Shown here: piece by piece, positions 8,682-62,210 of the stretch | How positions within the stretch are numbered: the stretch's first letter is position 1 | How the letters are laid out: every line of letters starts with the position of its first letter | Sequence record: MT119360.1 | From: Enterococcus phage nattely | Length of the DNA: 64,000 nt | Direction: 5' to 3' (one strand) | Notes under the pieces: model-generated | What the model saw: only the letters and a program-made list of their open reading frames with translations | Databases searched by the model: none | What the model was told of the DNA's origin: nothing | Made by a program: the position numbers and the translations under genes

Positions 8682-8882
8682 ATGAAAGAAAAATTAGAAT
8701 CAGGAATGGCAGTAATGGTTAATGTGGACGATGGTCAAACTTTAATCAAGGATAAAATTGGAATTATTACAGAAGTTTTTCCTCAAAAATATACAGCATT
8801 AACTGGTTTTCATTATGAAGTTTCACTTTTAAATTGTGGAACTGTTGTTAGATGTAATAAAAAAGAAATTAAGAAAATGTAG
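8682..8882 (+). CDS. hypothetical protein
   Basis: ORF with GGAGG RBS. Confidence 0.45.
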   Translation: MKEKLESGMAVMVNVDDGQTLIKDKIGIITEVFPQKYTALTGFHYEVSLLNCGTVVRCNKKEIKKM

Positions 8883-8953
8883 ACCGATAGGTTTACATTT
8901 TCACTATTTATTGATATAATATATTTATAAAATAAATTAAATTGGAGGTATTT

Positions 8954-9469
8954 ATGAATTTAGTTATTGAGGGTCCTAAAGCAAGTGGAAAAAGCACAAT
9001 TTCTCACCACTTTATTGAAAAATATTTAACGACATATGACCATATGAGCTCCGATAGCGATAACTCATTAAAAGGACATTTAAATTTATTAAAAGGCAAA
9101 AAAGGTGAATCATTAAATCATGTAATAGATCGTTTTTCAGTTGGGGAAATGATTTATCCTAATTTATATGGCCGTGAAGGAAAATTAAATTTAGATGAGT
9201 TTAATGTCACAATGAGTTCAGAAAACACATTATACGTTATTCTTTATTCTTCGTCTGATCAATTATTATTTGATCGAATTGAATGGAGAGGAAGAAACAC
9301 TGATGATGAAGATCATGATTTAGTGTCAAAATCAAATTTTGCATTTAAAATGATTGGTGAATCATTGAAATATCGTGAAAATGTATTATTATTTGATGTT
9401 GCAAAAGTAGGATTAAAAGAAATTATTAAAATAATTGAAGATAAATTGGAGGAGTTAAACAGATGTTAA
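8954..9469 (+). CDS. P-loop deoxynucleoside/deoxynucleotide kinase
   Basis: Walker A IEGPKASGKST; DRFSVGE resembles the dNK ERS/DR motif; ATG at 8954 with GGAGGT RBS. Confidence 0.5.
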   Translation: MNLVIEGPKASGKSTISHHFIEKYLTTYDHMSSDSDNSLKGHLNLLKGKKGESLNHVIDRFSVGEMIYPNLYGREGKLNLDEFNVTMSSENTLYVILYSSSDQLLFDRIEWRGRNTDDEDHDLVSKSNFAFKMIGESLKYRENVLLFDVAKVGLKEIIKIIEDKLEELNRC

Positions 9470-10308
9470 AATTTAAAAATGTAAATGATGCATGGATTCA
9501 TTTGGCAAAAAATGTCGTTTATAAAGGTGATGTTGTTGGAAATACAAAAGAATTAACAAATGTATCATTCCAAATTGAAAATCCATTAGATAACATTGTA
9601 AAAAGCCGTCACAATTTTTCATTAACATATTATTTAGGTGAAACTGTATGGTATGGTGCTGGTAAAGACGATGTTGAATTTATTAGTAAATTTGGCCGTA
9701 TTTGGAATCATTTAACAGATAATGGAATTTATAACAATAGTGCTTATGGTTATATCTTAAAAAATAAGCATGGTTTTGACCAAATCGAAAAAGCAATTGA
9801 ATTATTACGTGGAGATCAATATAGCCGACGAGCAGTGTTAAATATTAATATTCCACGGCGTGATGTTATTGAAACAAAAGATGAAATGTGCACAATTGCA
9901 TTACAGTTTTTAATTCGCGATGGAAAATTAAATATGACTGGAATTATGCGTTCAAATGATTTATGGACTGGTACTCCATATGATATTTTTTATTTCACAA
10001 CATTACAACGATATGTTGCATATAAATTAAATATTGATATGGGAACATATACGCATTTTGCAACTTCTTTACATTGTTATTTACGTGATGAAGAAAAATT
10101 AATTAAATCTTTTGAAAATGATGCAAATAATATTTATGCTGGTATCGATATTAATGGAATGCGTTTATTATTACAAGCTGAAGAATTATATTATACAACA
10201 CGTAAAGAAGAAAATGCAAAATTAGAATTAGTTAAATTATGTAAAGAACGTAATATTATTAAAGGAAAAGAAGTTGAAAAAACTATTGAAAAACTATCTG
10301 CTATTTAG
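9463..10308 (+). CDS. thymidylate-synthase-fold pyrimidine hydroxymethylase, best match to T4 gp42 dCMP hydroxymethylase
   Basis: SRRAVLNI / EMCTIALQFLIRDGKLN / MRSND block aligns to T4 gp42 DSRRGIMIY / FMCTNTVQYLIRDKKIN / MRSND; Asp in TPYDIF aligns with gp42 Asp179, where ThyA has Asn177. Confidence 0.7.
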   Translation: MLKFKNVNDAWIHLAKNVVYKGDVVGNTKELTNVSFQIENPLDNIVKSRHNFSLTYYLGETVWYGAGKDDVEFISKFGRIWNHLTDNGIYNNSAYGYILKNKHGFDQIEKAIELLRGDQYSRRAVLNINIPRRDVIETKDEMCTIALQFLIRDGKLNMTGIMRSNDLWTGTPYDIFYFTTLQRYVAYKLNIDMGTYTHFATSLHCYLRDEEKLIKSFENDANNIYAGIDINGMRLLLQAEELYYTTRKEENAKLELVKLCKERNIIKGKEVEKTIEKLSAI

Positions 10309-10336: not shown

Positions 10337-10753
10337 ATGAAAATTAAAATTAATATGTTTAGTGATGAAGAAATTTATCAACCAAAAAGAGCACATTATA
10401 ATGACGCAGGAGCCGATGTTCGCTCAACAGAAGAAATGTTAATTTGGCCAGGAGAAACTCGAAAAATTCCACTAGGTTTTGGATTAGAATTACCAGATGG
10501 ATATATGGGAGTTATGATGAGTCGTTCAGGATTAGCTTCAAAAGGATTAGTTTCACAAAATGCACCGGTTGATTCTGGATATAAAGGTCAAGTTCACGCA
10601 ATTATGACAAATGTATCAGATGAAGTTATTAAAATTGAAAAATATGATAGAATCGCACAATTAGTAATTATTCCAGTTATGGTTGCAGATTTTGTCACAG
10701 AAACAGGTAGTGAAAGAACCAGTGATGGTTTTGGAAGTACAGGTTTAAAATAG
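10337..10753 (+). CDS. dut: dUTP diphosphatase (trimeric dUTPase)
   Basis: motifs AGADV, MSRSGL, VDSGYKG, DGFGSTG in canonical order; 138 aa. Confidence 0.85.
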   Translation: MKIKINMFSDEEIYQPKRAHYNDAGADVRSTEEMLIWPGETRKIPLGFGLELPDGYMGVMMSRSGLASKGLVSQNAPVDSGYKGQVHAIMTNVSDEVIKIEKYDRIAQLVIIPVMVADFVTETGSERTSDGFGSTGLK

Positions 10754-10762
10754 GAGGATTAT

Positions 10763-11821
10763 ATGGAAATTTTATTATTGAATGTCGCAAATAACATTAC
10801 GGATTTTCGAACAGTATCAAGTGGGGAAACAGTTTATCTAAAACAAATGTTAGAACAGTTAGGCCATGGAGTTACAATTGCTTCAAATAAGAATGGTGAA
10901 TATGCGGTTGCATTTGAGGAAATTGAGGATATTAACAATTTTGACAAAGTAGTTGTTTTACCTGCTTCACTGAACTTTTTCGGTGGTGTAGAAAACCCGA
11001 CAATTATTAAAAATTATAAATTATTAGCAAAATATAATGGAACTATTAATATTTTGCAAACTGACGCACGTTTGCCATTTAAGCAGTTGTGGCCAGCAAT
11101 TGAGAAGCGGGGATGGGGATATAAAAAAGAAGAAGTTTGGATTAATGCCCCAATTAAAGTAATTGCACAATCAAAAAATTTAGATGAAGTTAAAACACAA
11201 TATGAAAAAGAAATTTTCAATAACATTGAGTTTACACATTTTCCAATTGAGCGTTATGCTGGCATTGTGGCGCTAATGAATCCAATTGATGAAGTCGAAG
11301 AAAAAGAACATGATTTAGTTTATTATGGTTCATTCCGTGGAGGCAATCGTGCTGCTAAAATGGCAGAATTTTTATGTGGAAACATTGTAGAAAAATTAGA
11401 TGTCCACGTATTTGGAACAATTCGAGAAAAACAATTAGCTAAAAGTAGCGATGGTCCATTTCCTTCGTTTGGTAAAAAGATGAAAATGAATGAAATTAGA
11501 CAAGAGGTTAGCAAAAGTTTCTCAACTTTAATTATTGGTGAAAAATTTTATAATAATGCAATGTTGACAGTGAGGGTTTGGGAAACATTAAGTAGCGACG
11601 CAGTAGTTCTCATTGACAACGATTTTGACTCTTACCATAATTTATTTCCTAATTCGCCATGGCGGTATGTTGAAAAAGAAGAAGATCTTATCGAAGTAGT
11701 AAAATCTCTTAAAGATGATGAAAATAAGAGAAAATTAGCGATTCAAGAGCAAAAAGAAGTGTTAGAAAAAATGATTGATTCTTCTCAATGGTTAAGAGAT
11801 TTTGAAAATATTTTAGCTTAA
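10763..11821 (+). CDS. bgt: DNA beta-glucosyltransferase (T4 BGT homolog, GT-B fold)
   Basis: full-length collinear similarity to T4 beta-glucosyltransferase: MEILLLNVANNITDFRTVSSGETVYL vs MKIAIINMGNNVINFKTVPSSETIYL, NFFGG, TDARLPFKQLWP vs TDIRLPFSQSWP, YGSFRGGNRAAKMAEFL vs YGGSFRSGQRESKMVEFL, LRVWETLSSDAVVLIDNDFD vs LRVWETMASDAVMLIDEEFD; 352 aa vs 351 aa. Confidence 0.85.
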   Translation: MEILLLNVANNITDFRTVSSGETVYLKQMLEQLGHGVTIASNKNGEYAVAFEEIEDINNFDKVVVLPASLNFFGGVENPTIIKNYKLLAKYNGTINILQTDARLPFKQLWPAIEKRGWGYKKEEVWINAPIKVIAQSKNLDEVKTQYEKEIFNNIEFTHFPIERYAGIVALMNPIDEVEEKEHDLVYYGSFRGGNRAAKMAEFLCGNIVEKLDVHVFGTIREKQLAKSSDGPFPSFGKKMKMNEIRQEVSKSFSTLIIGEKFYNNAMLTVRVWETLSSDAVVLIDNDFDSYHNLFPNSPWRYVEKEEDLIEVVKSLKDDENKRKLAIQEQKEVLEKMIDSSQWLRDFENILA

Positions 11822-11860
11822 CGGTTTACGTTAAGCTTTTTTTATGATATAATATAACTA
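11822..11860 (+). promoter_or_regulatory. terminator hairpin fused to promoter
   Basis: gcttaacggtttacgttaagc plus T7; TTTACG -35 in the loop; TATAAT. Confidence 0.55.
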
Positions 11861-11892: not shown

Positions 11893-12417
11893 ATGACGGT
11901 TCAGTTTAAAGCGAAAGGACATGAAGATAACATTATTCACTTATATTCAGATGGTGGTTGTCGGTCAACTGCTAAAAAAGGTGAAACTATAAAAGAAACA
12001 GATAAAAGTGCTTATGCATTCTTCTTAAAACAAGGTGGAAATGAAAAATTAGATGGGCAAGCAAGTTATGGTAAAACAAATAATAATCAAGAAATTATGG
12101 GATTATTAATGGGCTTACGCGCTATTAAACGCCCAGAATTTCCAGTTGTTGCATATTTAGATTCAGCTTATGTTGTTAACTGTTTACAAGCTGGCTGGTG
12201 GAAGAAGTGGAAAGCTAATGGATGGACGAAAAAAGGTGGATTAGCAAATGCTAAAGAATGGAAAGAATTAATTGAAGAATTAGAACGTTTTCCATTTTTT
12301 AGAATTGAAAAAGTTAAAGGACACAGTGGCTTTGCAGATTATAATGATTTAGTTGATAAACACTTAAATAAATTAATGGATGAATTACCTGAAATTGGAA
12401 AGGGAAATGTTTTATGA
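11893..12417 (+). CDS. rnh: ribonuclease H (RNase HI-like)
   Basis: YSDGGC N-terminal motif and C-terminal GHSGFADYNDLVDKH; 174 aa. Confidence 0.75.
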   Translation: MTVQFKAKGHEDNIIHLYSDGGCRSTAKKGETIKETDKSAYAFFLKQGGNEKLDGQASYGKTNNNQEIMGLLMGLRAIKRPEFPVVAYLDSAYVVNCLQAGWWKKWKANGWTKKGGLANAKEWKELIEELERFPFFRIEKVKGHSGFADYNDLVDKHLNKLMDELPEIGKGNVL

Positions 12418-13376
12418 TATATTATGGAGAGCCATATTTTGAACTATTTTCATATGAGGCGACTGATAAAGCAAGAAATGACACTTGTAAAATATTAAAC
12501 TCCATGGGGTATTCACCTTTAAAATTATCTTGTTTTTCAGACGTGAACATTGAGAAAGCTGATGAAGAATTAGCTAACATTGAGGAAAATGACATAATTC
12601 TCTTACAATATCCAACTTACAGTGGAGCAGATTATGAAAAGAGATTAATTGAAATTTCTCATAAGAAAAAAGCAAAAATCTGTGCAATTGTTCACGACTT
12701 AGAATCAATAAGATTCTATGGAAATGATAGTGACATTGAGATTTTGAATGGTTTCGATATTATATCTCTTCCCTCCATGGAGATGTATAAAAAACTCTTA
12801 AAACAAGGACTAAAAACAAAAGTAAAGATACAGTTAATTTGGGATTTTCTCGCCATGGATAATCAACAATGGTATGATACAAATTCGGACATTGTCTTTG
12901 CTGGAAATTTAACAATGGAAAAGAGTAAATGGATAATGGATGTAGATTTTCCTATGTTGGTGTATGGCGACAATATAAATAATTTAATTTTTAATGATGA
13001 TGTAAAATATTGTGGTAAAAAGAATGATTTGGAATTAGTAAAAGAAATTGGTGGACAAATTGGATTATTATGGGAAGAAGGATTATATAAAGATTATTTA
13101 AAATATAATTTATCGTTTAAGCCTTCTTTATATCTTGCAGCAAATTGTCCGATTATTGTTCCAGAAAAAACCCATATTGGAAATATTGTAAAAACATACA
13201 AAATAGGCGTAACTGTTAAAGATATTAAAAGACAAACAATGTTGGATGCTGTTATTAAATTAAAAGATAATTTAAACTTTTATCAAGAACGTGTTTCAAC
13301 ATTTGGAGAAACAATTAGAAATGGGCAAAATATGAAAACGTTAGTTGAAAGTATGGTGAGAGAAATTGAAAATTGA
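12414..13376 (+). CDS. putative GT-B glycosyltransferase (C-terminal GT4-like nucleotide-sugar binding region)
   Basis: DIVFAGNLTMEKSKW and LYLAANCPIIVPEKTHIGNIV resemble GT-B donor-binding motifs; start overlaps the rnh stop (ATGA). Confidence 0.4.
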   Translation: MIYYGEPYFELFSYEATDKARNDTCKILNSMGYSPLKLSCFSDVNIEKADEELANIEENDIILLQYPTYSGADYEKRLIEISHKKKAKICAIVHDLESIRFYGNDSDIEILNGFDIISLPSMEMYKKLLKQGLKTKVKIQLIWDFLAMDNQQWYDTNSDIVFAGNLTMEKSKWIMDVDFPMLVYGDNINNLIFNDDVKYCGKKNDLELVKEIGGQIGLLWEEGLYKDYLKYNLSFKPSLYLAANCPIIVPEKTHIGNIVKTYKIGVTVKDIKRQTMLDAVIKLKDNLNFYQERVSTFGETIRNGQNMKTLVESMVREIEN

Positions 13377-22019: not shown

Positions 22020-22241
22020 ATGACATTTGATGAAGCATTTGCAACAGTTTCTAAAAATCGTAATGTATATATGGCATTACCAACGTGGAAAGATGATGTA
22101 AAAATTTTCTGTCAATTTCCAGATGAAAAAAGCAAAATGACACATAAATATTTATATGTGGATTCGCGTTTTGGTCGCGTACCATGGTTACCGACCCAAG
22201 TTGAATTATTTAGTGATAAATGGAAGGTGGCAGCAATCTAA
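22020..22241 (+). CDS. hypothetical protein
   Basis: ORF after the promoter at about 21965. Confidence 0.45.
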   Translation: MTFDEAFATVSKNRNVYMALPTWKDDVKIFCQFPDEKSKMTHKYLYVDSRFGRVPWLPTQVELFSDKWKVAAI

Positions 22242-22942
22242 TGGAAAGAAAATTTGAAAAAGTAAGTGGATATGAAGATGTAAATATCCCATTAAGAGCG
22301 ACTCGTTTTTCGGCCGGTTACGATTTTGAAGCGGCGGAAGATATTACAATTCCTTCGTTGGTGATTGGAATTGACCAATACACAGAAAATATCAAACGAA
22401 AAATTGATGCAACAGATGATGTATCTATCACTGAAGATCAATTTGAAAAACTTAATAATATTAATAGTGAATTTGAAGATAATTCAATTTACACTCAAGC
22501 TGATGAAAAAAATTATTTGGACGTATTAACAATTATGAATGATATTTTAGATGAAGATGTGGATGCTGATACTGTTTTAGACCATTTGAATCAATTTAAA
22601 AATACATTCAAACCAACTTTAGTTCCAACTGGTATTAAAGCAAAAATGCCAAGTGATGAAATGTTATTATTATATAATCGTTCTTCAAATCCATTAAAAC
22701 GTTTCTTGTTTTTAGCAAATGGTGTTGGAGTTATTGACAGTGATTATTATAATAATGAAGGAAATGAAGGTCACATTATGTTCCAATTTATTAATTTAGG
22801 TCCCACACCGATCACTATTAAAAAAGGTGAACGAATTGGCCAAGGAATTTTCCAAAAGTTCTTATTAACGACAGATGTTGAAATTACACAAGACGTTGAA
22901 CGAACTGGTGGTTTTGGTTCGACTAATAAGGAGGAACAATAA
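22241..22942 (+). CDS. dUTPase/dCTP-deaminase superfamily protein with a roughly 100-aa insertion; candidate dCTP/dUTP pyrophosphatase
   Basis: dUTPase motifs in order: SAGYDF (I), GVIDSDY (III), RTGGFGSTN (V), with a long acidic insert between I and III. Confidence 0.55.
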   Translation: MERKFEKVSGYEDVNIPLRATRFSAGYDFEAAEDITIPSLVIGIDQYTENIKRKIDATDDVSITEDQFEKLNNINSEFEDNSIYTQADEKNYLDVLTIMNDILDEDVDADTVLDHLNQFKNTFKPTLVPTGIKAKMPSDEMLLLYNRSSNPLKRFLFLANGVGVIDSDYYNNEGNEGHIMFQFINLGPTPITIKKGERIGQGIFQKFLLTTDVEITQDVERTGGFGSTNKEEQ

Positions 22943-28144: not shown

Positions 28145-30073
28145 ATGGCTGATAAAATTAAAAAATTAGATGATCGCGCACAAGCTAGGGAAAAACTGAG
28201 CATATGGTATGGCTCACGTGATAATTTTTATCACGGTGTAAAGGAGCTTATTGCAAACGCTGCAGATGAACTTAGAAATCACTCTAGTGAACCTGGTAAA
28301 ATCGAAGTTACTTTATCCAATAATAATAAAAGAATTATGGTTAGTGATAATGGTAGAGGCATTCGTATTGGTGGCGAAACAGACGGTGAAAAAAATTATG
28401 ACTTATTATTCCGTACACTATTTGCAGGAACAAAATATGATGTTACCGAAAATGTGACAACCGGAACTAATGGAGTTGGAACAACCGTATTAAATTATAC
28501 TTCAAAATTATTTGCTGTTATGTCACATTATGATAACAAAGTTCATAAAGTACGTTTCATTAATGGTGGAGAACTAGATGGTGAATATATGGAAAAAGAT
28601 ATGAGTGAAATTGAAAATGCTCACGGTTCAACTTTTGTTGTTGAACTTGACGAAACAATTTACACACATACTCAATTTGACCCTAATCATATCAAAGAAA
28701 TTGTCAAACATTTTGCTGTGGCTTCACCAGGTATCGAATATCGTTTTGTTCATGATGAAACAGTTACAAAATTTAAATATGAAGGTATTCGCGATCGTTT
28801 TGATGAATTAATTGGAACAACTACAACGTCAGGTATTTTCACACTGGGCGAAGTAGAAAATACTAGTGAGGTTCCACAAATTGACGGGGAGGTAGTAGTT
28901 GAAAAAAACAAATATAATATTGTATTAACAACCTCACCGGACACGCATCAAGAATCATATTTGAATATGACATGGTTAGAAGAAGGTGGCGCAATTAATG
29001 ACGGGGTTTTAGATGGTGTTCGTTTATATATGAATAAATATTGTCGAGCTAAAAAATTATTCCCTAAAAAAGTGACTGCTTTTAATAAAGAAGACATTGA
29101 AAATTCACTATCGTTTATCACTGTGGTTGAATCAAACATTGTTGAATTTAGTAACCAAACAAAATTAAGTACAAATAAGAAAAAATATAAAGATGAAGTA
29201 AAAGTATATATTGAAAATTTATTAACAGCAATGGAAGCACAACAGCCGAAAGAATTCAATAAATTTGTTGATCATTTGTTAACTGTCCAAAAGGCAAATG
29301 GCGCAAACGATCGTGCTCGTCAAAAATTGAAAAAACAATTGACGGAAAAAGTGACTGGAATTGGCAATAAGATTGAAAAATTAATTGATTGTGAAATTCA
29401 TGGATTAGATGCGGAACTATTTTTAACAGAAGGTGATTCAGCGAATGGATCGATTGTTGATAGTCGGGATGATCATTTTCAAGCTGCATTTCCATTGCGT
29501 GGCAAAGTGTTAAATGTTTTACGCGCTTCACCTGAAGATATTTTCAAAAATAAAGAAATTGTAAATATGATCAAAATTATTGGAACTGGAATTCAATTTG
29601 GTAAAAAAGATGATTTTGATATTGATAACTTACGTTTTGGAAAAATTATTATTACAACAGACGCAGATGCAGATGGTGGACATATTATGTCACTATTAGT
29701 TGCATTTATTTATCGGTTTATGAAACCATTATTGGAAAAAGGACATGTGTACGTTGCACAAACACCATTATATGAATTGAAATTTAGTGATGATTCAGTA
29801 GTTTACTTTTTAACTGAAGATGAAAAAAATAAAAATATTGGCAAATATGAAGGTCAAAAATATACTATTAATCGTCTAAAAGGATTAGGTGAAGTTGATG
29901 CTGAAACAATGGAAGCAACAACTATGAATCCAAAAACCCGTAATCTTATTCAATTAACAACAGAAAAAGCAGAAGATTTTCTAATGATTGATAAATGGAT
30001 GAACGATGATGTTGAACCCAGAAAAGAAATGATTAATAATCAACTTGCAAATTATGTTCACGACATTGATTAG
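28145..30073 (+). CDS. type II DNA topoisomerase ATPase/TOPRIM subunit (GyrB/ParE-like, T4 gp39-like)
   Basis: GHKL ATPase N-terminus; TOPRIM EGDSANGS and DADADGGHI motifs. Confidence 0.8.
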   Translation: MADKIKKLDDRAQAREKLSIWYGSRDNFYHGVKELIANAADELRNHSSEPGKIEVTLSNNNKRIMVSDNGRGIRIGGETDGEKNYDLLFRTLFAGTKYDVTENVTTGTNGVGTTVLNYTSKLFAVMSHYDNKVHKVRFINGGELDGEYMEKDMSEIENAHGSTFVVELDETIYTHTQFDPNHIKEIVKHFAVASPGIEYRFVHDETVTKFKYEGIRDRFDELIGTTTTSGIFTLGEVENTSEVPQIDGEVVVEKNKYNIVLTTSPDTHQESYLNMTWLEEGGAINDGVLDGVRLYMNKYCRAKKLFPKKVTAFNKEDIENSLSFITVVESNIVEFSNQTKLSTNKKKYKDEVKVYIENLLTAMEAQQPKEFNKFVDHLLTVQKANGANDRARQKLKKQLTEKVTGIGNKIEKLIDCEIHGLDAELFLTEGDSANGSIVDSRDDHFQAAFPLRGKVLNVLRASPEDIFKNKEIVNMIKIIGTGIQFGKKDDFDIDNLRFGKIIITTDADADGGHIMSLLVAFIYRFMKPLLEKGHVYVAQTPLYELKFSDDSVVYFLTEDEKNKNIGKYEGQKYTINRLKGLGEVDAETMEATTMNPKTRNLIQLTTEKAEDFLMIDKWMNDDVEPRKEMINNQLANYVHDID

Positions 30074-30157: not shown

Positions 30158-30370
30158 ATGTTGGACGTTTTAAATTATCAATCTAGATTAGCTATGATTA
30201 AACAACAAATGAATGCTAATATGGATATTATTATTTTTTTAAGTTGTAAACAAACATTGGAAAAAGAAGAAATTGATGAGCTACAAAGTAGATTAAAAGC
30301 ACATTATAGTTTGGCTCATAAATTTCAAGCTATTGTTGAAAAACGTATTAAAATGGAGGAAGATAAATGA
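30158..30370 (+). CDS. hypothetical protein inserted between the topoisomerase subunit genes
   Basis: ORF with its own promoter cassette at about 30090. Confidence 0.45.
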   Translation: MLDVLNYQSRLAMIKQQMNANMDIIIFLSCKQTLEKEEIDELQSRLKAHYSLAHKFQAIVEKRIKMEEDK

Positions 30371-32355
30371 TTAATAAAGTTGGTTTAGGCGAACAATTAA
30401 ACGATGCAATGATGGGAATGAGTGCATACACTATTTTACAACGTGCAATCCCTGATTTTCGTGATGGTTTTAAACCAGTAAATAGACGTATTATTACATC
30501 AATGCTTTTAAATAAGACTTTTAATTTCACCAAAAGTGCAACAGTTGAAGGCCGCGTAATGCAATTGCATCCACATGGAGGATCATATGGTTCAATCGTT
30601 GGATTAGTTCAAAAAGATCGAAATAGTCTTCCATTTTTAACTGGAAAAGGAAGTTGGGGTCAATATACATCAAGTGACCAACAACCAGCTGCTGCTCGAT
30701 ACACTGAAGTAAAATTAGGTAAAAACGCACTTGAAGTAACAAAAGAGTTAAAAGAAAAAAGTGTTGATTATGTACCAAATTATGATGGCACAATTAATGT
30801 CCCCGAAGTTTTACCTGTGACATATCCATCAATTTTAACTCAATCACAAAGTGGTATCGCAAATGGTTTTGCAACTTCTATTTTATCATATAATATTCAT
30901 GAATTATATGATATGATTGATGATATTTTAATGTTACGTGGAAGGACAAAACCAATTTATCCAGATTTTCCAACAGGTGCAACGATCATAAAAGATGATG
31001 AGGAAGCACTTAATGTAATTAGAACTGGGCGTGGTTCATTTACAATGAGAGCAAAAATTGAAATTGATAATAATAAATTAATTGTAACTGAAATTCCTTA
31101 TGGTGTAAAACGTGAACAAATCATTAAAAAAATTATTGAGTTGAATAAACGTGGAACACTAAAAGAAGTTACAGATGTTCGTGATGGTACGTCATTTAAA
31201 GGTATGAAAATTGTAATTACAGCTAAGAAAAATACAGATATGAAAGAATTAATTGTAAAACTGTATAAGCTTACTCCACTTCAAGCGAAAGTTAGTGCTA
31301 ATATGAACGTATTAATTGATGGTAGATTAGAAGTTTTAGGAGTAGAAGAATTATTATTAAATTGGATTAAATGGCGTGTATCTGTAATTAAACGTGGATT
31401 AAATAATAAATTAACAAACATGAAAAAAGATTTACACATTTTAGAAGGTTTGCGTAAAATTGCTTCAGTTGATGAAGTTATTCGTATCGTTCGTTTCGAA
31501 GATGATGATAAAGTTGATCAATTGTTAATGGAAGCATTTAATTTAACAGAAGAACAAGCAGAATATATCGGTAAAATGACATTACGCTCATTAAATGAAA
31601 AACGTATCCAAAATAGATTAAAAGATATTGAAGATTTGGAAAGTAGAATTAAAGATTTAGAAGAAACAATTGATAATGATGGATTATTAAAAGTTATTTT
31701 GCAACGTCGTATGATGGAAACAATGAAAGAAATTGATGCTCCAAAACGTAAAACTGAAATTATCACAATTGATGAAGAAAAAGAAAAAGAAGTTCATAAG
31801 ATTGTAAAAGTAAAAGAAGTAGATAATGCTAAATATTTTGTGTGCTTCACCAAAAATGGATGGTTATTAAAAGGTAAAAATAAAAATGATATGGAATCAC
31901 AATTAATTTTAGGTGATGAAATTGTTCAATATTGGGAAGTACAAAATGATAAAAATATTGTTCTATTTATGAAAGATAAATCAGTTAGAAACATTAAAGT
32001 AAAACAAATTAAAGATAAAGAATTTGTTGGAAATGATGCTTTATTTGCTGAATGTAATGTTGATGAAAGTGCATTAGTTTTATTAGTCTTTGATGAAGGA
32101 CATATCGTAAAAATTCCAATTGATGCATTTGTGAAAAATCGTCAAATTATGGAAAAAGGATATTTTGATGGTGAAAACTTAATTTACGTAAAACAATTAA
32201 ATGGTGAAAAATTAATCAATATTTTCATTGGTGATAAACAAAAACCAAAAACAATTGAAGTTGAAACTATCAATATTAAAAAGAACCGTTTAGCGCGTGG
32301 TCAAAAACTATTTAATAATAAAAAATTAGAAAAAGTGAATGTCACTCTGGGTTAA
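30367..32355 (+). CDS. type II DNA topoisomerase DNA-cleavage subunit (GyrA/ParC-like)
   Basis: RDGFKPVNRRII (GyrA DGLKPVHRRIL); catalytic tyrosine context AARYTEVKL. Confidence 0.8.
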   Translation: MINKVGLGEQLNDAMMGMSAYTILQRAIPDFRDGFKPVNRRIITSMLLNKTFNFTKSATVEGRVMQLHPHGGSYGSIVGLVQKDRNSLPFLTGKGSWGQYTSSDQQPAAARYTEVKLGKNALEVTKELKEKSVDYVPNYDGTINVPEVLPVTYPSILTQSQSGIANGFATSILSYNIHELYDMIDDILMLRGRTKPIYPDFPTGATIIKDDEEALNVIRTGRGSFTMRAKIEIDNNKLIVTEIPYGVKREQIIKKIIELNKRGTLKEVTDVRDGTSFKGMKIVITAKKNTDMKELIVKLYKLTPLQAKVSANMNVLIDGRLEVLGVEELLLNWIKWRVSVIKRGLNNKLTNMKKDLHILEGLRKIASVDEVIRIVRFEDDDKVDQLLMEAFNLTEEQAEYIGKMTLRSLNEKRIQNRLKDIEDLESRIKDLEETIDNDGLLKVILQRRMMETMKEIDAPKRKTEIITIDEEKEKEVHKIVKVKEVDNAKYFVCFTKNGWLLKGKNKNDMESQLILGDEIVQYWEVQNDKNIVLFMKDKSVRNIKVKQIKDKEFVGNDALFAECNVDESALVLLVFDEGHIVKIPIDAFVKNRQIMEKGYFDGENLIYVKQLNGEKLINIFIGDKQKPKTIEVETINIKKNRLARGQKLFNNKKLEKVNVTLG

Positions 32356-37172: not shown

Positions 37173-37216
37173 AAAAAATAGGAGCCAATCGGTTAAGATT
37201 GACTCCTATTTTTATT
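37171..37216. terminator. bidirectional rho-independent terminator between the convergent early and late blocks
   Basis: aggagccaatcggttaagattgactcct hairpin flanked by an A-run upstream and a T-run downstream. Confidence 0.65.
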
Positions 37217-38192
37217 ATATCCCAAATGCTTCAAAGAGAATTTCTTCACTTCTGTCCATTAGGTAAGATTCAGTAGTTGATACATCCTCATGATGAGCGA
37301 TTAATTTTAATACTTTTAAATCTAATTGGTCTTTGCCTAATTCTTTTAACACATGATGAGTTCCGTTAGAATAATTATCTAATGATGAATGGCGGAAACA
37401 GTGTGGATTAATATCTACAACTTCTCCAGTTTTCAATTCTAAAACTTTTCTGAAATATAGACAAAAATTATATAATGATTCATATGATCTTGCTCTAATA
37501 TTTTCGCCTTTTCCAGCAACCCATAAAGAGTCAATATTATCATTTCCGCGTTGATCAAACCATAATTTTGCTATTTCTCTAGTGCGATCAAAATATAAAA
37601 GTTGGAATTTTTTACCACGTTTACCAATAACTTCATTAGTCATTTTCGATTCTAAGAAATTTTGTTTTTTAACTTGTAGAATTTCATTACGACGAGCAGC
37701 ACTATCATATGATAAAGATAAATATAAAGCCATTTCATATTTTTCTTCTTCTAATAAATGTTCTAAAATAATATCAATTTGCTCATCAGTTAGAAAAACA
37801 ATATCTCTAACTTTTTCACCTTGAATTCCTTTAATTGCACGCATAACATTTTTATCATAATCATATTCATCTTCATCATCTTCAGCAAAAGCTAATAAAT
37901 TTCGAATTGAACTTTGAAAACGATTAATTCTAGCTGCGCTCGTGCCCATTTCTTGCATTGATAAGAAAAATGTTCGAAACATGCGTTTCTTAAGGTCTAA
38001 TATTGATTTATTTCCTGCATTTTGAGCTATCCAACAGAAAAAGCCTTTAATGTCGGCAGTATATTGGTAAATAGTTTTTTCAGCTCGACCTTTACTTTTA
38101 AGTTCTAAAATATAATCTTCTAATAACATTTTGTTTTCCGCATTAACTTCTTCCCATATTTTTTCATCAAATAAATTATTGCGTTTTGCCAT
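37215..38192 (-). CDS. tyrosine recombinase (XerC/D-like integrase-family)
   Basis: C-terminal catalytic region HCFRHSS...LIAHHEDVSTTESYL with the R..H..R/H..Y arrangement; 325 aa. Confidence 0.7.
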   Translation of the reverse strand: MAKRNNLFDEKIWEEVNAENKMLLEDYILELKSKGRAEKTIYQYTADIKGFFCWIAQNAGNKSILDLKKRMFRTFFLSMQEMGTSAARINRFQSSIRNLLAFAEDDEDEYDYDKNVMRAIKGIQGEKVRDIVFLTDEQIDIILEHLLEEEKYEMALYLSLSYDSAARRNEILQVKKQNFLESKMTNEVIGKRGKKFQLLYFDRTREIAKLWFDQRGNDNIDSLWVAGKGENIRARSYESLYNFCLYFRKVLELKTGEVVDINPHCFRHSSLDNYSNGTHHVLKELGKDQLDLKVLKLIAHHEDVSTTESYLMDRSEEILFEAFGI

Positions 38193-38259: not shown

Positions 38260-39402
38260 TTAAAATCCCCATCCCCAGGTATTAGCTGGATTATTATCGT
38301 TAGGGCCAATTGCTACATAGCTACGTCCACCACCATAGTTAATATATGTTAACCATACATAACCATTAGCAACAACGTAACCATCATATGTGAACGACAT
38401 TCCTGCATTATAGTAGTCTAATGCTGGGCTGTTTGGATCGACATCACCAGAAACTGGTAATTGGATAGATGTTGTGAAAGTTCCGTAAGCAGGATAAATA
38501 GTTGCAGTATTTTGACTTGGCACTGCTGGTTTATTTGGGTTCCAAATTTCAGCGATGTCGCCATCATTTGCATATCCTAATAATTTACCACTGTTACGAA
38601 TTTCATACAAGTTTTTACGTCCATCTAACTTCTTAGTGATTGTTCCAACTTGTGTCCATAATGTATCTGCATTGATGTGTTGGCCAATTGGTGCATCTGG
38701 GTTTTTGTAGATTGTTGTGAAACGAACGTTGTCTCCGACTTTATATCGAGGTTTATTCGGTTTAGCAGGTTGATCAGGTTTGTTTGGCACATTAGCTGTA
38801 GAATCACTAGAAACTCCATTTGCCAAATCTTGTGCTAATTGTGCTTTACTAATACCCATTTCAGCTAAATATCCATAAGGATCTTGGTGATCGCCCCAAA
38901 TATTGTCAGAAACCCATTTATGTGTTTTAATACCATTTCCAGGTTGGTCCAACGTCAATGGAATACCAAAATAATTAGCGGCATCACGAGCTAAAGAGAT
39001 ATATGCTTTATAGTTCTTTTTAAATAAAGCAGGATCATGGGTGTGTTGTAATTCAATTTGAACTGGAGCATATGGATTGGCATTACCCGCTCCCCAACTT
39101 ACGATTCCCCATTGACCAACACGATAATCAATTCCACCATCACCGATGATGTCTGTTGTATATGCGTTAAACCAATTTCTTTTCATGTAAGTCGCTTCAT
39201 TTCGGCCAGTTGCTGTCTCATTTGCTGTTTCGTGTAAAATGATATAGTTTGGTGAAGCTGCATATCCGGCGCCCTCACCTGGAGCTAAATTAAATTCATT
39301 GTTAATGGTATAATCTGCAGCTTCAGCTTTATCTACTGCTCCAAAACCTAATCCAATCATTAAAGTTCCAGCAATTGCCATAAATAATTTACTTGCTTTC
39401 AT
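38260..39402 (-). CDS. endolysin: N-acetylmuramoyl-L-alanine amidase (Amidase_2/PGRP-like) with cleavable signal peptide and C-terminal SH3b-like wall-binding repeats
   Basis: signal peptide MKASKLFMAIAGTLMIGLGFGAVDKAEA; catalytic region YIILHETANE; C-terminal Trp/Tyr-rich repeats; immediately downstream of holin-like genes. Confidence 0.65.
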   Translation of the reverse strand: MKASKLFMAIAGTLMIGLGFGAVDKAEAADYTINNEFNLAPGEGAGYAASPNYIILHETANETATGRNEATYMKRNWFNAYTTDIIGDGGIDYRVGQWGIVSWGAGNANPYAPVQIELQHTHDPALFKKNYKAYISLARDAANYFGIPLTLDQPGNGIKTHKWVSDNIWGDHQDPYGYLAEMGISKAQLAQDLANGVSSDSTANVPNKPDQPAKPNKPRYKVGDNVRFTTIYKNPDAPIGQHINADTLWTQVGTITKKLDGRKNLYEIRNSGKLLGYANDGDIAEIWNPNKPAVPSQNTATIYPAYGTFTTSIQLPVSGDVDPNSPALDYYNAGMSFTYDGYVVANGYVWLTYINYGGGRSYVAIGPNDNNPANTWGWGF

Positions 39403-60988: not shown

Positions 60989-61026
60989 AAGTAAACCTCC
61001 AATTAGATAGCTTTTATTAAGCCAAA

Positions 61027-61098
61027 CAGGTCGTAGAAGATTCGAACTCCTATCACTTGGGTTGGAGCCAAGTATGTTACCAATTACACCAACAACCT
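61027..61098 (-). tRNA. tRNA-Trp (anticodon CCA)
   Basis: folds by hand: acceptor AGGTTGT/ACGACCT (7 bp incl. G-U), U8, D-stem GTGT/ACAT, D-loop with GG and A14/A21, anticodon stem CTTGG/CCAAG with loop CTCCAAC (U33, CCA, A37), T-stem AGGAG/CTTCT, T-loop TTCGAAT, discriminator G; no encoded CCA. Confidence 0.6.
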
Positions 61099-61299
61099 AT
61101 GTGAAACTAAAAAGTTTCACTAAAAAAGAAAAAAAAGGAAGTTATGACTAGAAAAGTAGAAAGTAGAAAGGTGTTCAGAGAACACAATGATAGCCAATCG
61201 GAATCGCACCGATTCAAAAAGGCTTGTCAACCTTAATGTCTACTAAGAAGCTACCGCATTTAATGTTCCACCTTTAATGGCAGCGGGACGCCAATTTTA

Positions 61300-61712: not shown

Positions 61713-62210
61713 CTATGATTTCAATGCGGCTAACAGCGGATCTTCTTCCTCTTCTTTTGCCTCAACTTTAAGTTGGCTTAAACTAGCCCTTGCTGAAGGA
61801 GATAATCCAAGTTGTCCACACAAAGCTCTATATTGTGTTAAATATGCTAATTTCGTTTTTACCATTGGATGTTCTTTTGGAATTGTATTTCCAAACTTAT
61901 CATAAGAATCATATTTGATTCCTTCACGAGCTAAAATTTCATCAGCTTGTTTCATTTTTGAAAGACAATCGGCCGTTTGCGATAATAACGGCACGTCTAA
62001 ATTAGACAAAAATCCTGATTCGCTGAATTCATTAATTAGAAATTGATAATATTCTTGGGCATAATCGTCTATATCGTCTGGAACAATCCACACTAAATCG
62101 TCATTTCCTGCCATTTCTTTTTCAACTTCTGCTCGTTCGTTTAAATCTTCTTTTGTTTCACTTTTACCAGCTTTAACTGTTGCTGGTTTTCTTGGTCTTG
62201 CCATATTCAT
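61713..62210 (-). CDS. terS: terminase small subunit (P27 family)
   Basis: N-terminal MNMARPRKPATVK typical of P27-family TerS; adjacent to HNH and terL. Confidence 0.7.
   Translation of the reverse strand: MNMARPRKPATVKAGKSETKEDLNERAEVEKEMAGNDDLVWIVPDDIDDYAQEYYQFLINEFSESGFLSNLDVPLLSQTADCLSKMKQADEILAREGIKYDSYDKFGNTIPKEHPMVKTKLAYLTQYRALCGQLGLSPSARASLSQLKVEAKEEEEDPLLAALKS

Follow-up and report, generated by a model that had tools for sequence, protein, structure and literature searches.

Among the described relatives of thymidylate synthase that act on pyrimidine nucleotides, gp42 of phage T4 (PDB 1B5E, 6A9A) is the experimentally defined deoxycytidine monophosphate (dCMP) hydroxymethylase, MilA of Streptomyces rimofaciens (PDB 5JNH, 5B6D) is a cytidine monophosphate (CMP) 5-hydroxymethylase with a role in antibiotic biosynthesis, SPO1 gp29 and Kuttervirus Cba120 orf073 are deoxyuridine monophosphate (dUMP) hydroxymethylases, and RB69 gp48 and DLP3 gp80 are 5-hydroxy-dCMP synthases (Lee et al., NAR 2026). 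The gene considered here belongs to Enterococcus phage nattely and was analysed within a stretch of 64,000 nucleotides of sequence record MT119360.1 (the window), to which all nattely coordinates refer. It occupies positions 9463..10308 of the plus strand, where a complete open reading frame (ORF) with an ATG start, 281 codons, and a stop is read directly from the sequence, together with a Shine-Dalgarno sequence GGAGGAG (9448..9454, plus strand) situated 8 nt upstream of the ATG at 9463. The product, which is the query of the comparisons below, is deposited as YP_010106412.1 under the label "thymidylate synthase" and matches the Pfam family PF00303 (thymidylate synthase / dCMP hydroxymethylase superfamily) with E = 7e-21. 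On the evidence set out here it is, with a probability of about 0.88, a folate-dependent dCMP 5-hydroxymethylase, that is, a 5-hydroxymethyl-dCMP (5hm-dCMP) synthase with EC 2.1.2.8-type chemistry.

The activities found in this fold are separated by a small number of positions, which are given here in the numbering of E. coli ThyA. An acidic residue in place of Leu143, together with the Ser94-x-Tyr96 motif of gp42, activates water so that a hydroxymethyl and not a methyl product is formed, and the D145N variant of T4 gp42 forms no 5hm-dCMP (PMC6400193). Asn in place of Asp169 was diagnostic for all the 5-hydroxy-dCMP synthases tested, and Asp at position 177 is also present in the enzymes of this type from RB69, DLP3, and RL38JI, which use flavin and O2 (PMC13326640). 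The preference of MilA for the ribonucleotide is given by its Lys133 and Ala176, the A176S/K133R double mutant being active on dCMP only (PMC5175136). The earlier note on this DNA had predicted dCMP hydroxymethylation from the replacement of Asn by Asp at position 177. The dCMP reading is upheld, since all the determinants tested agree with it, but the Asp is insufficient alone, because dCMP methylases and 5-hydroxy-dCMP synthases share it.

The query was aligned with the products of T4 gene 42, E. coli thyA, SPO1 gene 29, Cba120 orf073, RB69 gp48, and DLP3 gp80, which were fetched for this purpose, and with a MilA core transcribed from the PDB alignment. The catalytic nucleophile is Cys143 in the motif DEMCTIALQF (codon 9889..9891, plus strand; by script count and alignment), equivalent to ThyA Cys146 and gp42 Cys148. 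Three residues before it stands Asp140 (codon 9880..9882, plus strand; gp42 Asp145, E. coli ThyA Leu143), the determinant of hydroxymethylase versus methylase activity, and 31 residues after it stands Asp174 in the motif TPYDIF (codon 9982..9984, plus strand; ThyA Asn177, gp42 Asp179), the determinant of cytosine versus uracil. The same spacing of +31 is found in T4 gp42 and in E. coli ThyA, so the distance given in the earlier note is right by script count, and the strings quoted there (EMCTIALQF and TPYDIF in the query, FRNDY in gp42, PFNIAS in ThyA) are all correct against the fetched sequences. The MRSND block (residues 162-166 by script count), described there as near-identical to gp42, is in fact identical: the aligned stretch of T4 gp42 reads NMRSNDVVFGFRNDYAW, with the same pentapeptide and with Asp179 within FRNDY, and that of E. 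coli ThyA reads QRSCDVFLGLPFNIASY, with Asn177. The last residue of this block is Asp166 (codon 9958..9960, plus strand), which corresponds to ThyA Asp169 and is kept as Asp.

At positions 143/169/177 the alignment gives L/D/N for E. coli ThyA, D/D/N for SPO1 gp29 and Cba120 orf073, E/N/D for RB69 gp48 and DLP3 gp80, and D/D/D for both T4 gp42 and MilA, the latter having Lys and Ala at the ribose positions. The query carries D140/D166/D174 and is thus D/D/D, as gp42. It has also Glu60, the Ser-x-Tyr motif in the form Ser93-Ala-Tyr95 (gp42 Ser94/Tyr96), and the set of residues of a deoxyribonucleotide pocket, namely, the partner subunit's Arg122/Arg123 together with Arg163/Ser164 and His204-x-Tyr206. 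Arg122 and Ser164 are the kept ThyA residues R126 and S167, at which MilA has K and A, and therefore the query is assigned to the deoxy type, unlike MilA. With T4 gp42 the query has in common the fold and the complete catalytic and specificity set (Glu60, Ser-x-Tyr, Arg-Arg, Asp at Cys-3, the Cys itself, MRSND, Asp at Cys+31, and His-x-Tyr), and its residue code matches that of gp42 at every position compared.

These residues are strongly conserved among the homologues of the query. Glu60, Ser93, Tyr95, Arg122, Asp140, Cys143, Ser164, Asp166, and Asp174 are kept in all 120 database homologues (44-98% identity), and with this invariance and the PF00303 score the match is not due to chance. When a library of 1.84 billion representatives (50%-identity clusters) was searched exhaustively with HMMER, 9046 relatives were obtained at E ≤ 0.001, and the nearest 150 of them were tallied (34-55% identity, with one truncated match at 61%). 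The triad was D/D/D in 145 and D/D/N in five of these, the first D/D/N appearing at rank 56, while Arg and Ser were present at both ribose-discriminating positions in 144 of the 150. By this tally the query enzyme is placed in a large, mostly metagenomic, MilA-like D/D/D clade.

As for the nearest known enzymes, the BLAST score of the query was 103 bits with gene 13 of Bacteroides phage BF503P4 (D/D/D), 102 with MilA (35% identity), 95 with SPO1 gp29, 91 with Cba120 orf073, 71 with the ThyA homologue of phage Mallos, 53 with DLP3 gp80, 51 with both E. coli ThyA and T4 gp42 (in the latter case 30% identity over 145 aa), and 49 with RB69 gp48. A phmmer search of PDB gave E = 1e-25 for MilA and E = 4e-8 for gp42. 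The AlphaFold2 model of the query (pLDDT 96, pTM 0.93) had MilA as the best solved match in Foldseek (TM 0.77, about 285 columns, with the C-terminal helical extension aligned as well), and T4 dCMP hydroxymethylase was matched with TM 0.64 when normalised by the query and 0.74 when normalised by the target; the E values of these MilA and T4 matches were from 1e-13 to 1e-19. In the query no ThyA-like C-terminal motif aligns, its place being taken by the helical extension of about 70 residues which is common to MilA; T4 gp42 is without this extension, has insertions that the query does not have, and differs in that the query comes from a siphophage infecting a Gram-positive host. MilA is, then, the closest solved relative in both sequence and structure, and the likeness of the MRSND block to gp42, pointed out in the earlier note, does not extend to close kinship of the whole protein. 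The query is best described as a predicted hydroxymethylase that is MilA-like but has a sugar pocket of the deoxy type, gp42-like in its expected working and outside the gp42 orthologous group. A neighbour-joining tree of 12 reference sequences was too small and too deep for claims of origin, and the scores and the triad tally were used in its place.

The second line of evidence is the modification of cytosine in related phages. At the DNA level the 3-kb block around the gene shares 98% identity with Enterococcus phage vB_EfaS_140, and its identity with VPE25, VFW, vB_EfKM29, and vipetofem is about 90%; VPE25 and VFW share with nattely also the gene order, and their DNA β-glucosyltransferase (β-GT) falls into the same 90%-identity cluster. 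In Duerkop et al. 2016 study the cytosines of VPE25 and VFW DNA resisted bisulfite conversion, the DNA was resistant to EcoRI and MspI and was cut by PvuRts1I, which is specific for hydroxymethylcytosine and glucosyl-hydroxymethylcytosine, and the authors concluded that the cytosines were glycosylated (PMC4999554). The DNA of vB_EfaS_140 was found to be refractory to several nucleases (PMC7820071). Neither of these two papers mentions the gene considered here; Duerkop et al. credit only the β-GT, and the route that they describe is formation of 5-methylcytosine (5mC) followed by hydroxylation. Such a post-replicative route, by a methyltransferase and a TET-like dioxygenase, was considered and rejected, the required domains not having been found: there was no C5-methyltransferase and no TET/JBP-type dioxygenase either among the scanned ORFs, from which many small ORFs were left out, or in the annotations of the relatives. 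Therefore a T4-style pre-replicative route fits the genes that are present, and the genes of the block point to the hydroxymethylase as the first step toward the glycosylated cytosine of this phage group.

The reading of the query as a dCMP hydroxymethylase is preferred because Asp at 177, Asp at 143, Ser-x-Tyr, Asp at 169, and the Arg/Ser pair all agree with it and because the genomic context with a β-GT and the modified cytosine of VPE25 and VFW agree as well. By homology to T4 gp42 and ThyA a mechanism can be proposed, in which Cys143 would attack C6 of dCMP, while Asp174 would hydrogen-bond and protonate cytosine N3/N4 and in this way select cytosine over uracil. Glu60 would activate 5,10-methylene-tetrahydrofolate, giving a methylene bridge at C5; after elimination of tetrahydrofolate (THF), water activated by Asp140 with Ser93/Tyr95 would add to the exocyclic methylene, at the stage where thymidylate synthase transfers a hydride, and the products would be 5hm-dCMP and THF. 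The phosphate and the 2'-deoxyribose would be held by the pocket residues listed above, that is, by Arg122/Arg123 of the partner subunit, Arg163/Ser164, and His204/Tyr206. Further, the product of the overlapping upstream kinase-like gene would phosphorylate 5hm-dCMP, host enzymes would supply the triphosphate, and the phage polymerase would insert the modified nucleotide into DNA, where the β-GT encoded two genes downstream, perhaps along with a second glycosyltransferase, would glycosylate the hydroxymethyl group and so protect the phage DNA from restriction. For nattely the residues, the fold, the gene order, the conservation, and the domain fusions are direct observations, and we infer the extent of the operon, the enzymatic activity, and the parts played by the kinase and by the dUTPase homologue.

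Several circumstances weigh against this assignment. With T4 gp42 the query shares no more than 30% identity over the 145 aligned residues, and gp42 is outscored by both dUMP hydroxymethylases (SPO1 and Cba120), so the assignment depends on a few determinant positions and on context. That Asn at position 169 marks the 5-hydroxy-dCMP synthases is a rule found empirically, in one study only. The wet-lab data were obtained with VPE25 and VFW, whose orthologue is 75% identical, and not with nattely, and the bisulfite, MspI, and PvuRts1I assays leave the base chemically unidentified and might confuse glycosylated 5-hydroxymethylcytosine (5hmC) with another glycosylated C5-substituted cytosine.

With regard to the other activities of the fold, each of the alternatives considered here fails at least one tested determinant, as judged from the sequences. 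A dUMP hydroxymethylase of the SPO1 gp29/Kuttervirus type, or a promiscuous one with substantial activity on dUMP as well as on dCMP, is suggested by the BLAST scores just mentioned and by the adjacent dUTPase homologue, which could supply dUMP; some residual dUMP activity is also a property of T4 gp42. The SPO1 and Cba120 enzymes belong to the hydroxymethylase branch and have Asp at Cys-3, as the query, but they modify uracil and carry Asn at 177, Ala before the Tyr where the query has Ser, and Arg-Gln where it has Arg-Arg. The earlier note took clustering with the dUMP hydroxymethylases or thymidylate synthases as the sign against a dCMP enzyme; by BLAST the query is indeed nearer to SPO1 and Cba120 than to gp42, yet 145 of its 150 nearest representatives are of the Asp type, so that it clusters with the cytosine-type enzymes, and because the overall scores lie near the dUMP hydroxymethylases such clustering is too crude a criterion. 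The relatives' DNA, moreover, carries its modification on cytosine, and a dUMP or dual-substrate enzyme is very unlikely, although it is the least improbable of the alternatives. Next to it, and already highly improbable, comes a 5-hydroxy-dCMP (5hoC) synthase resembling RB69 gp48 and DLP3 gp80, the product of which would be glycosylated directly via an ether oxygen at C5. Such enzymes are ThyA homologues that require flavin and O2; they likewise combine Asp at 177 with an acidic residue at 143, are encoded beside kinase-like genes and DNA glycosyltransferases, and form a sugar acceptor on phage DNA, and some of them have MilA as the top PDB match (PMC13326640); the restriction and bisulfite assays made with VPE25 are unable to separate 5hoC clearly from 5hmC. 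They use flavin and O2 chemistry instead of folate one-carbon transfer, however, and RB69 gp48 and DLP3 gp80, which reach only 49-53 bits with the query, have Glu143, Asn169, and Val/Leu at 173/176, whereas the query has Asp166 and Gly170. All the 5hoC synthases tested have Asn169, while Asp stands at this position in the query, in 120 of 120 homologues, and in 150 of 150 representatives; the retention of Asp166 therefore argues against an enzyme of the 5hoC type, and the adjacent transferase is a clear homologue of T4 β-GT, the known acceptor of which is 5hmC.

Still less probable is a dCMP methyltransferase forming 5-methyl-dCMP, with the chemistry seen in ThyA N229D/N177D mutants and attributed to XP12-type phages, from which hydroxylation and glycosylation would be reached by another route. 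Asp at position 177 alone is reported to turn thymidylate synthase into a dCMP methylase (Liu and Santi 1992, cited in PMC13326640), and the route given by Duerkop et al. passes through 5mC. Against it, Asp140 with Ser93-x-Tyr95 forms the hydroxymethylase signature, and it is with the loss of the corresponding Asp that gp42 D145N ceases to form 5hm-dCMP; the C-terminal tail of the ThyA type does not align in the query, the dioxygenase and C5-methyltransferase genes were not found in the ORFs and annotations scanned, and the β-GT requires a hydroxyl acceptor. There is also no dihydrofolate reductase (DHFR) gene near the query to recycle dihydrofolate, unlike in Xanthomonas phage Mallos (L008, 2800..4616), where a ThyA homologue with the triad N/D/D is immediately followed by genes of dCMP deaminase and DHFR. 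That arrangement would fit a dihydrofolate-producing dCMP methylase; Mallos is used as a contrast only, because its XP12-type activity is presumed. A ribonucleotide (CMP) hydroxymethylase of the MilA/BcmA type, making the 5hmC base for a small molecule or RNA, can be regarded as a negligible alternative, even with MilA as the top match in sequence and in structure: Lys133/Ala176 of MilA are Arg122/Ser164 in the query, equivalent to the A176S/K133R enzyme restricted to dCMP, no N-glycosidase of the MilB type accompanies the gene, and the gene stands within a block of phage replication and nucleotide metabolism. To the same negligible degree one could think of a genuine thymidylate synthase, as annotated for nattely, vB_EfaS_140, VPE25, VFW, and vipetofem, which has in its favour the PF00303 membership and the database product names. 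Asn177 and Leu143 of ThyA are both replaced by Asp in the query, however, no ThyA-like C-terminal motif aligns, and all six NCBIfam thymidylate-synthase equivalog models score far under their cutoffs, e.g., 89.8 against 174.55 bits and 62.3 against 327.

The product names carry no weight in this question, because in RefSeq "thymidylate synthase" is applied even to T4 gp42 (L002, 10480..11220), and this naming shows how a mislabel spreads to homologues. Among the phage records of the relatives the label is found in five of six, as in nattely, the GenBank copy of vipetofem being named "hypothetical protein"; in the more distant phage Planchet the gene is labelled "thymidilate synthase/pyrimidine hydroxymethylase". 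The literature search found no paper naming the gene of the VPE25/nattely group as a dCMP hydroxymethylase, and a paper on enterococcal type IV restriction deals with an unmodified phage. The dCMP hydroxymethylase assignment would thus correct a label spread through the public records of the VPE25 group, would supply the missing first enzyme for a modification already demonstrated in these phages, which are studied for phage therapy, and would replace the published description of "5mC then hydroxylation" by the T4-style pre-replicative route. It provides also a worked multi-site code (ThyA positions 143, 169, 177, 126, and 167), by which methylase, hydroxymethylase, and hydroxylase, uracil and cytosine, and ribo and deoxy substrates are separated, and links the D/D/D deoxy clade to varied DNA glycosyltransferases. 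The logic of the determinants and the pathway have been published before, as has the end product in these phages, and the re-annotation will not surprise a specialist; the additions are the explicit link and the membership in the MilA-like D/D/D clade.

The hydroxymethylase gene is the second of a four-gene block on the plus strand. The first gene (8954..9469), whose stop codon (9467-9469) is overlapped by the start of the hydroxymethylase gene, encodes a kinase-like P-loop protein of 171 aa when counted from the ATG at 8954, while its ORF opens at the TTG at 8942. It weakly matches phrog_761 "thymidylate kinase" (E = 9.5e-7), is clearly homologous to the N-terminal domain of the naturally occurring kinase::hydroxymethylase fusions P0050/P0058/P0072 (33-39% identity, E = 2e-28), and shares 46% identity with its positional counterpart in the relative L011; the PDB sequence search gave no match for it, and the similarity to the kinases of the RB69/DLP3 clusters was marginal (E about 0.01). 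It likely represents a modified-deoxynucleoside monophosphate (dNMP) kinase family which is poorly represented in curated libraries. The third gene (10337..10753) encodes a trimeric dUTPase-family protein of 138 aa with a variant motif III (PF00692 E = 9.5e-23; NF001862 106.6 bits against a cutoff of 103), and the fourth (10763..11821) a homologue of T4-type DNA β-GT of 352 aa (PF09198 E = 2e-61; phrog_7922 E = 2e-98), which shares 41% identity with T4 β-gt across 342 aa (E = 7e-83). In T4 the β-gt partner is adjacent to gene 42 and co-oriented with it, whereas in nattely it stands one gene apart.

At the 5' side of the block a promoter-like TTTACA-17-TATAAT sequence with TG (8892..8920, plus strand) was found as a consensus match, overlapping with a terminator-like hairpin at 8873-8902, and a second terminator-like hairpin with a T-run, found by pattern match, closes the block at 11815..11837 (plus strand). 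Promoter-like sites were no more numerous here than in shuffled controls, and therefore the boundaries of the operon are putative. Downstream of the block follow genes of RNase H, a second glycosyltransferase, and thymidine kinase. The second predicted glycosyltransferase (12414..13376, plus strand; 320 aa), the start of which overlaps the stop of the RNase H gene, is galactofuranosyltransferase/Gtf3-like, matching NF007323 with E = 1.3e-37, far under its cutoff, and lies below all curated cutoffs; at its place the relatives carry Gtf3_N/Gtf3_C. The gene has 963 nt in nattely and likewise in VPE25, and the orthologue in vB_EfaS_140 appears to be split or shortened (a coding sequence of 678 nt). 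The encoded enzyme may lengthen the sugar carried by the modified base, and its presence suggests a possible disaccharide, or a hexose other than glucose, on the DNA.

The dUTPase homologue of the block is one of two trimeric dUTPase-family genes of nattely, the other being at 22220..22942 (plus strand; 240 aa). The base-recognition hairpin (motif III) of the 138-aa copy is shortened to GLVSQN--APVDSGY and departs from the canonical GNLVGLIDSDY, while the 240-aa copy has the canonical motif ANGVGVIDSDY and an insertion of about 95 residues. Because of the variant motif and of the canonical second paralogue, the 138-aa copy could be a dCTP or dCTP/dUTP pyrophosphatase, and it stands beside the hydroxymethylase gene also in L011 (76% identity), L013 (52%), and VPE25. 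In T4 the exclusion of dCTP from DNA is the job of the dCTPase gp56, which is annotated as a dUTPase and whose fold differs from that of the trimeric dUTPase homologue. It is a tentative and rather unlikely suggestion that the 138-aa copy is a dCTPase of the trimeric Dut fold, which with the kinase, the hydroxymethylase, and the glycosyltransferase would constitute a portable cassette for full cytosine replacement in phages of Gram-positive bacteria; if so, it would provide the hydroxymethylase with dCMP and exclude dCTP from the phage DNA.

The surroundings of the hydroxymethylase gene vary among the relatives. In L011 its neighbours are the same kinase-like gene, a dUTPase, a nucleoside diphosphate (NDP)-sugar transferase, and a Gtf3-type glycosyltransferase, and in L013 they are a T4 α-glucosyltransferase (PF11440) and a dUTPase. 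In the metagenomic relative L012 (4245..8353) the hydroxymethylase P0071, which is D/D/D and 50% identical to the query, is accompanied by a class I methyltransferase, S-adenosylmethionine (SAM) synthetase, LuxS, and ThyX, a set which suggests that this virus elaborates 5hmC in another, SAM-dependent way. Elsewhere in the clade the enzymes have a C-terminal thymidylate-kinase-like domain or are fused to the TET-associated DNA glycosyltransferase PF20691. Varied glycosyltransferase neighbours are the pattern expected of a supplier of a hydroxyl-bearing base, and judging from these gene arrangements the predicted hydroxymethylase is a conserved hub feeding different DNA-decoration modules.

Outside this region the window contains genes of type II topoisomerase subunits, GyrB-like at 28145..30073 (plus strand) and GyrA/ParC-like at 30367..32355 (plus strand), and a similar pair is situated upstream of the hydroxymethylase of L012. 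An ORF of the tyrosine recombinase/integrase family (37215..38192, minus strand; PF00589, PF02899) adjoins an endolysin gene (38260..39402; amidase and SH3_5), and the phage group is called strictly lytic in the literature. A single tRNA gene, tRNA-Trp with the anticodon CCA, is found at 61026..61099 (minus strand), near the gene of the small terminase (61713..62210).

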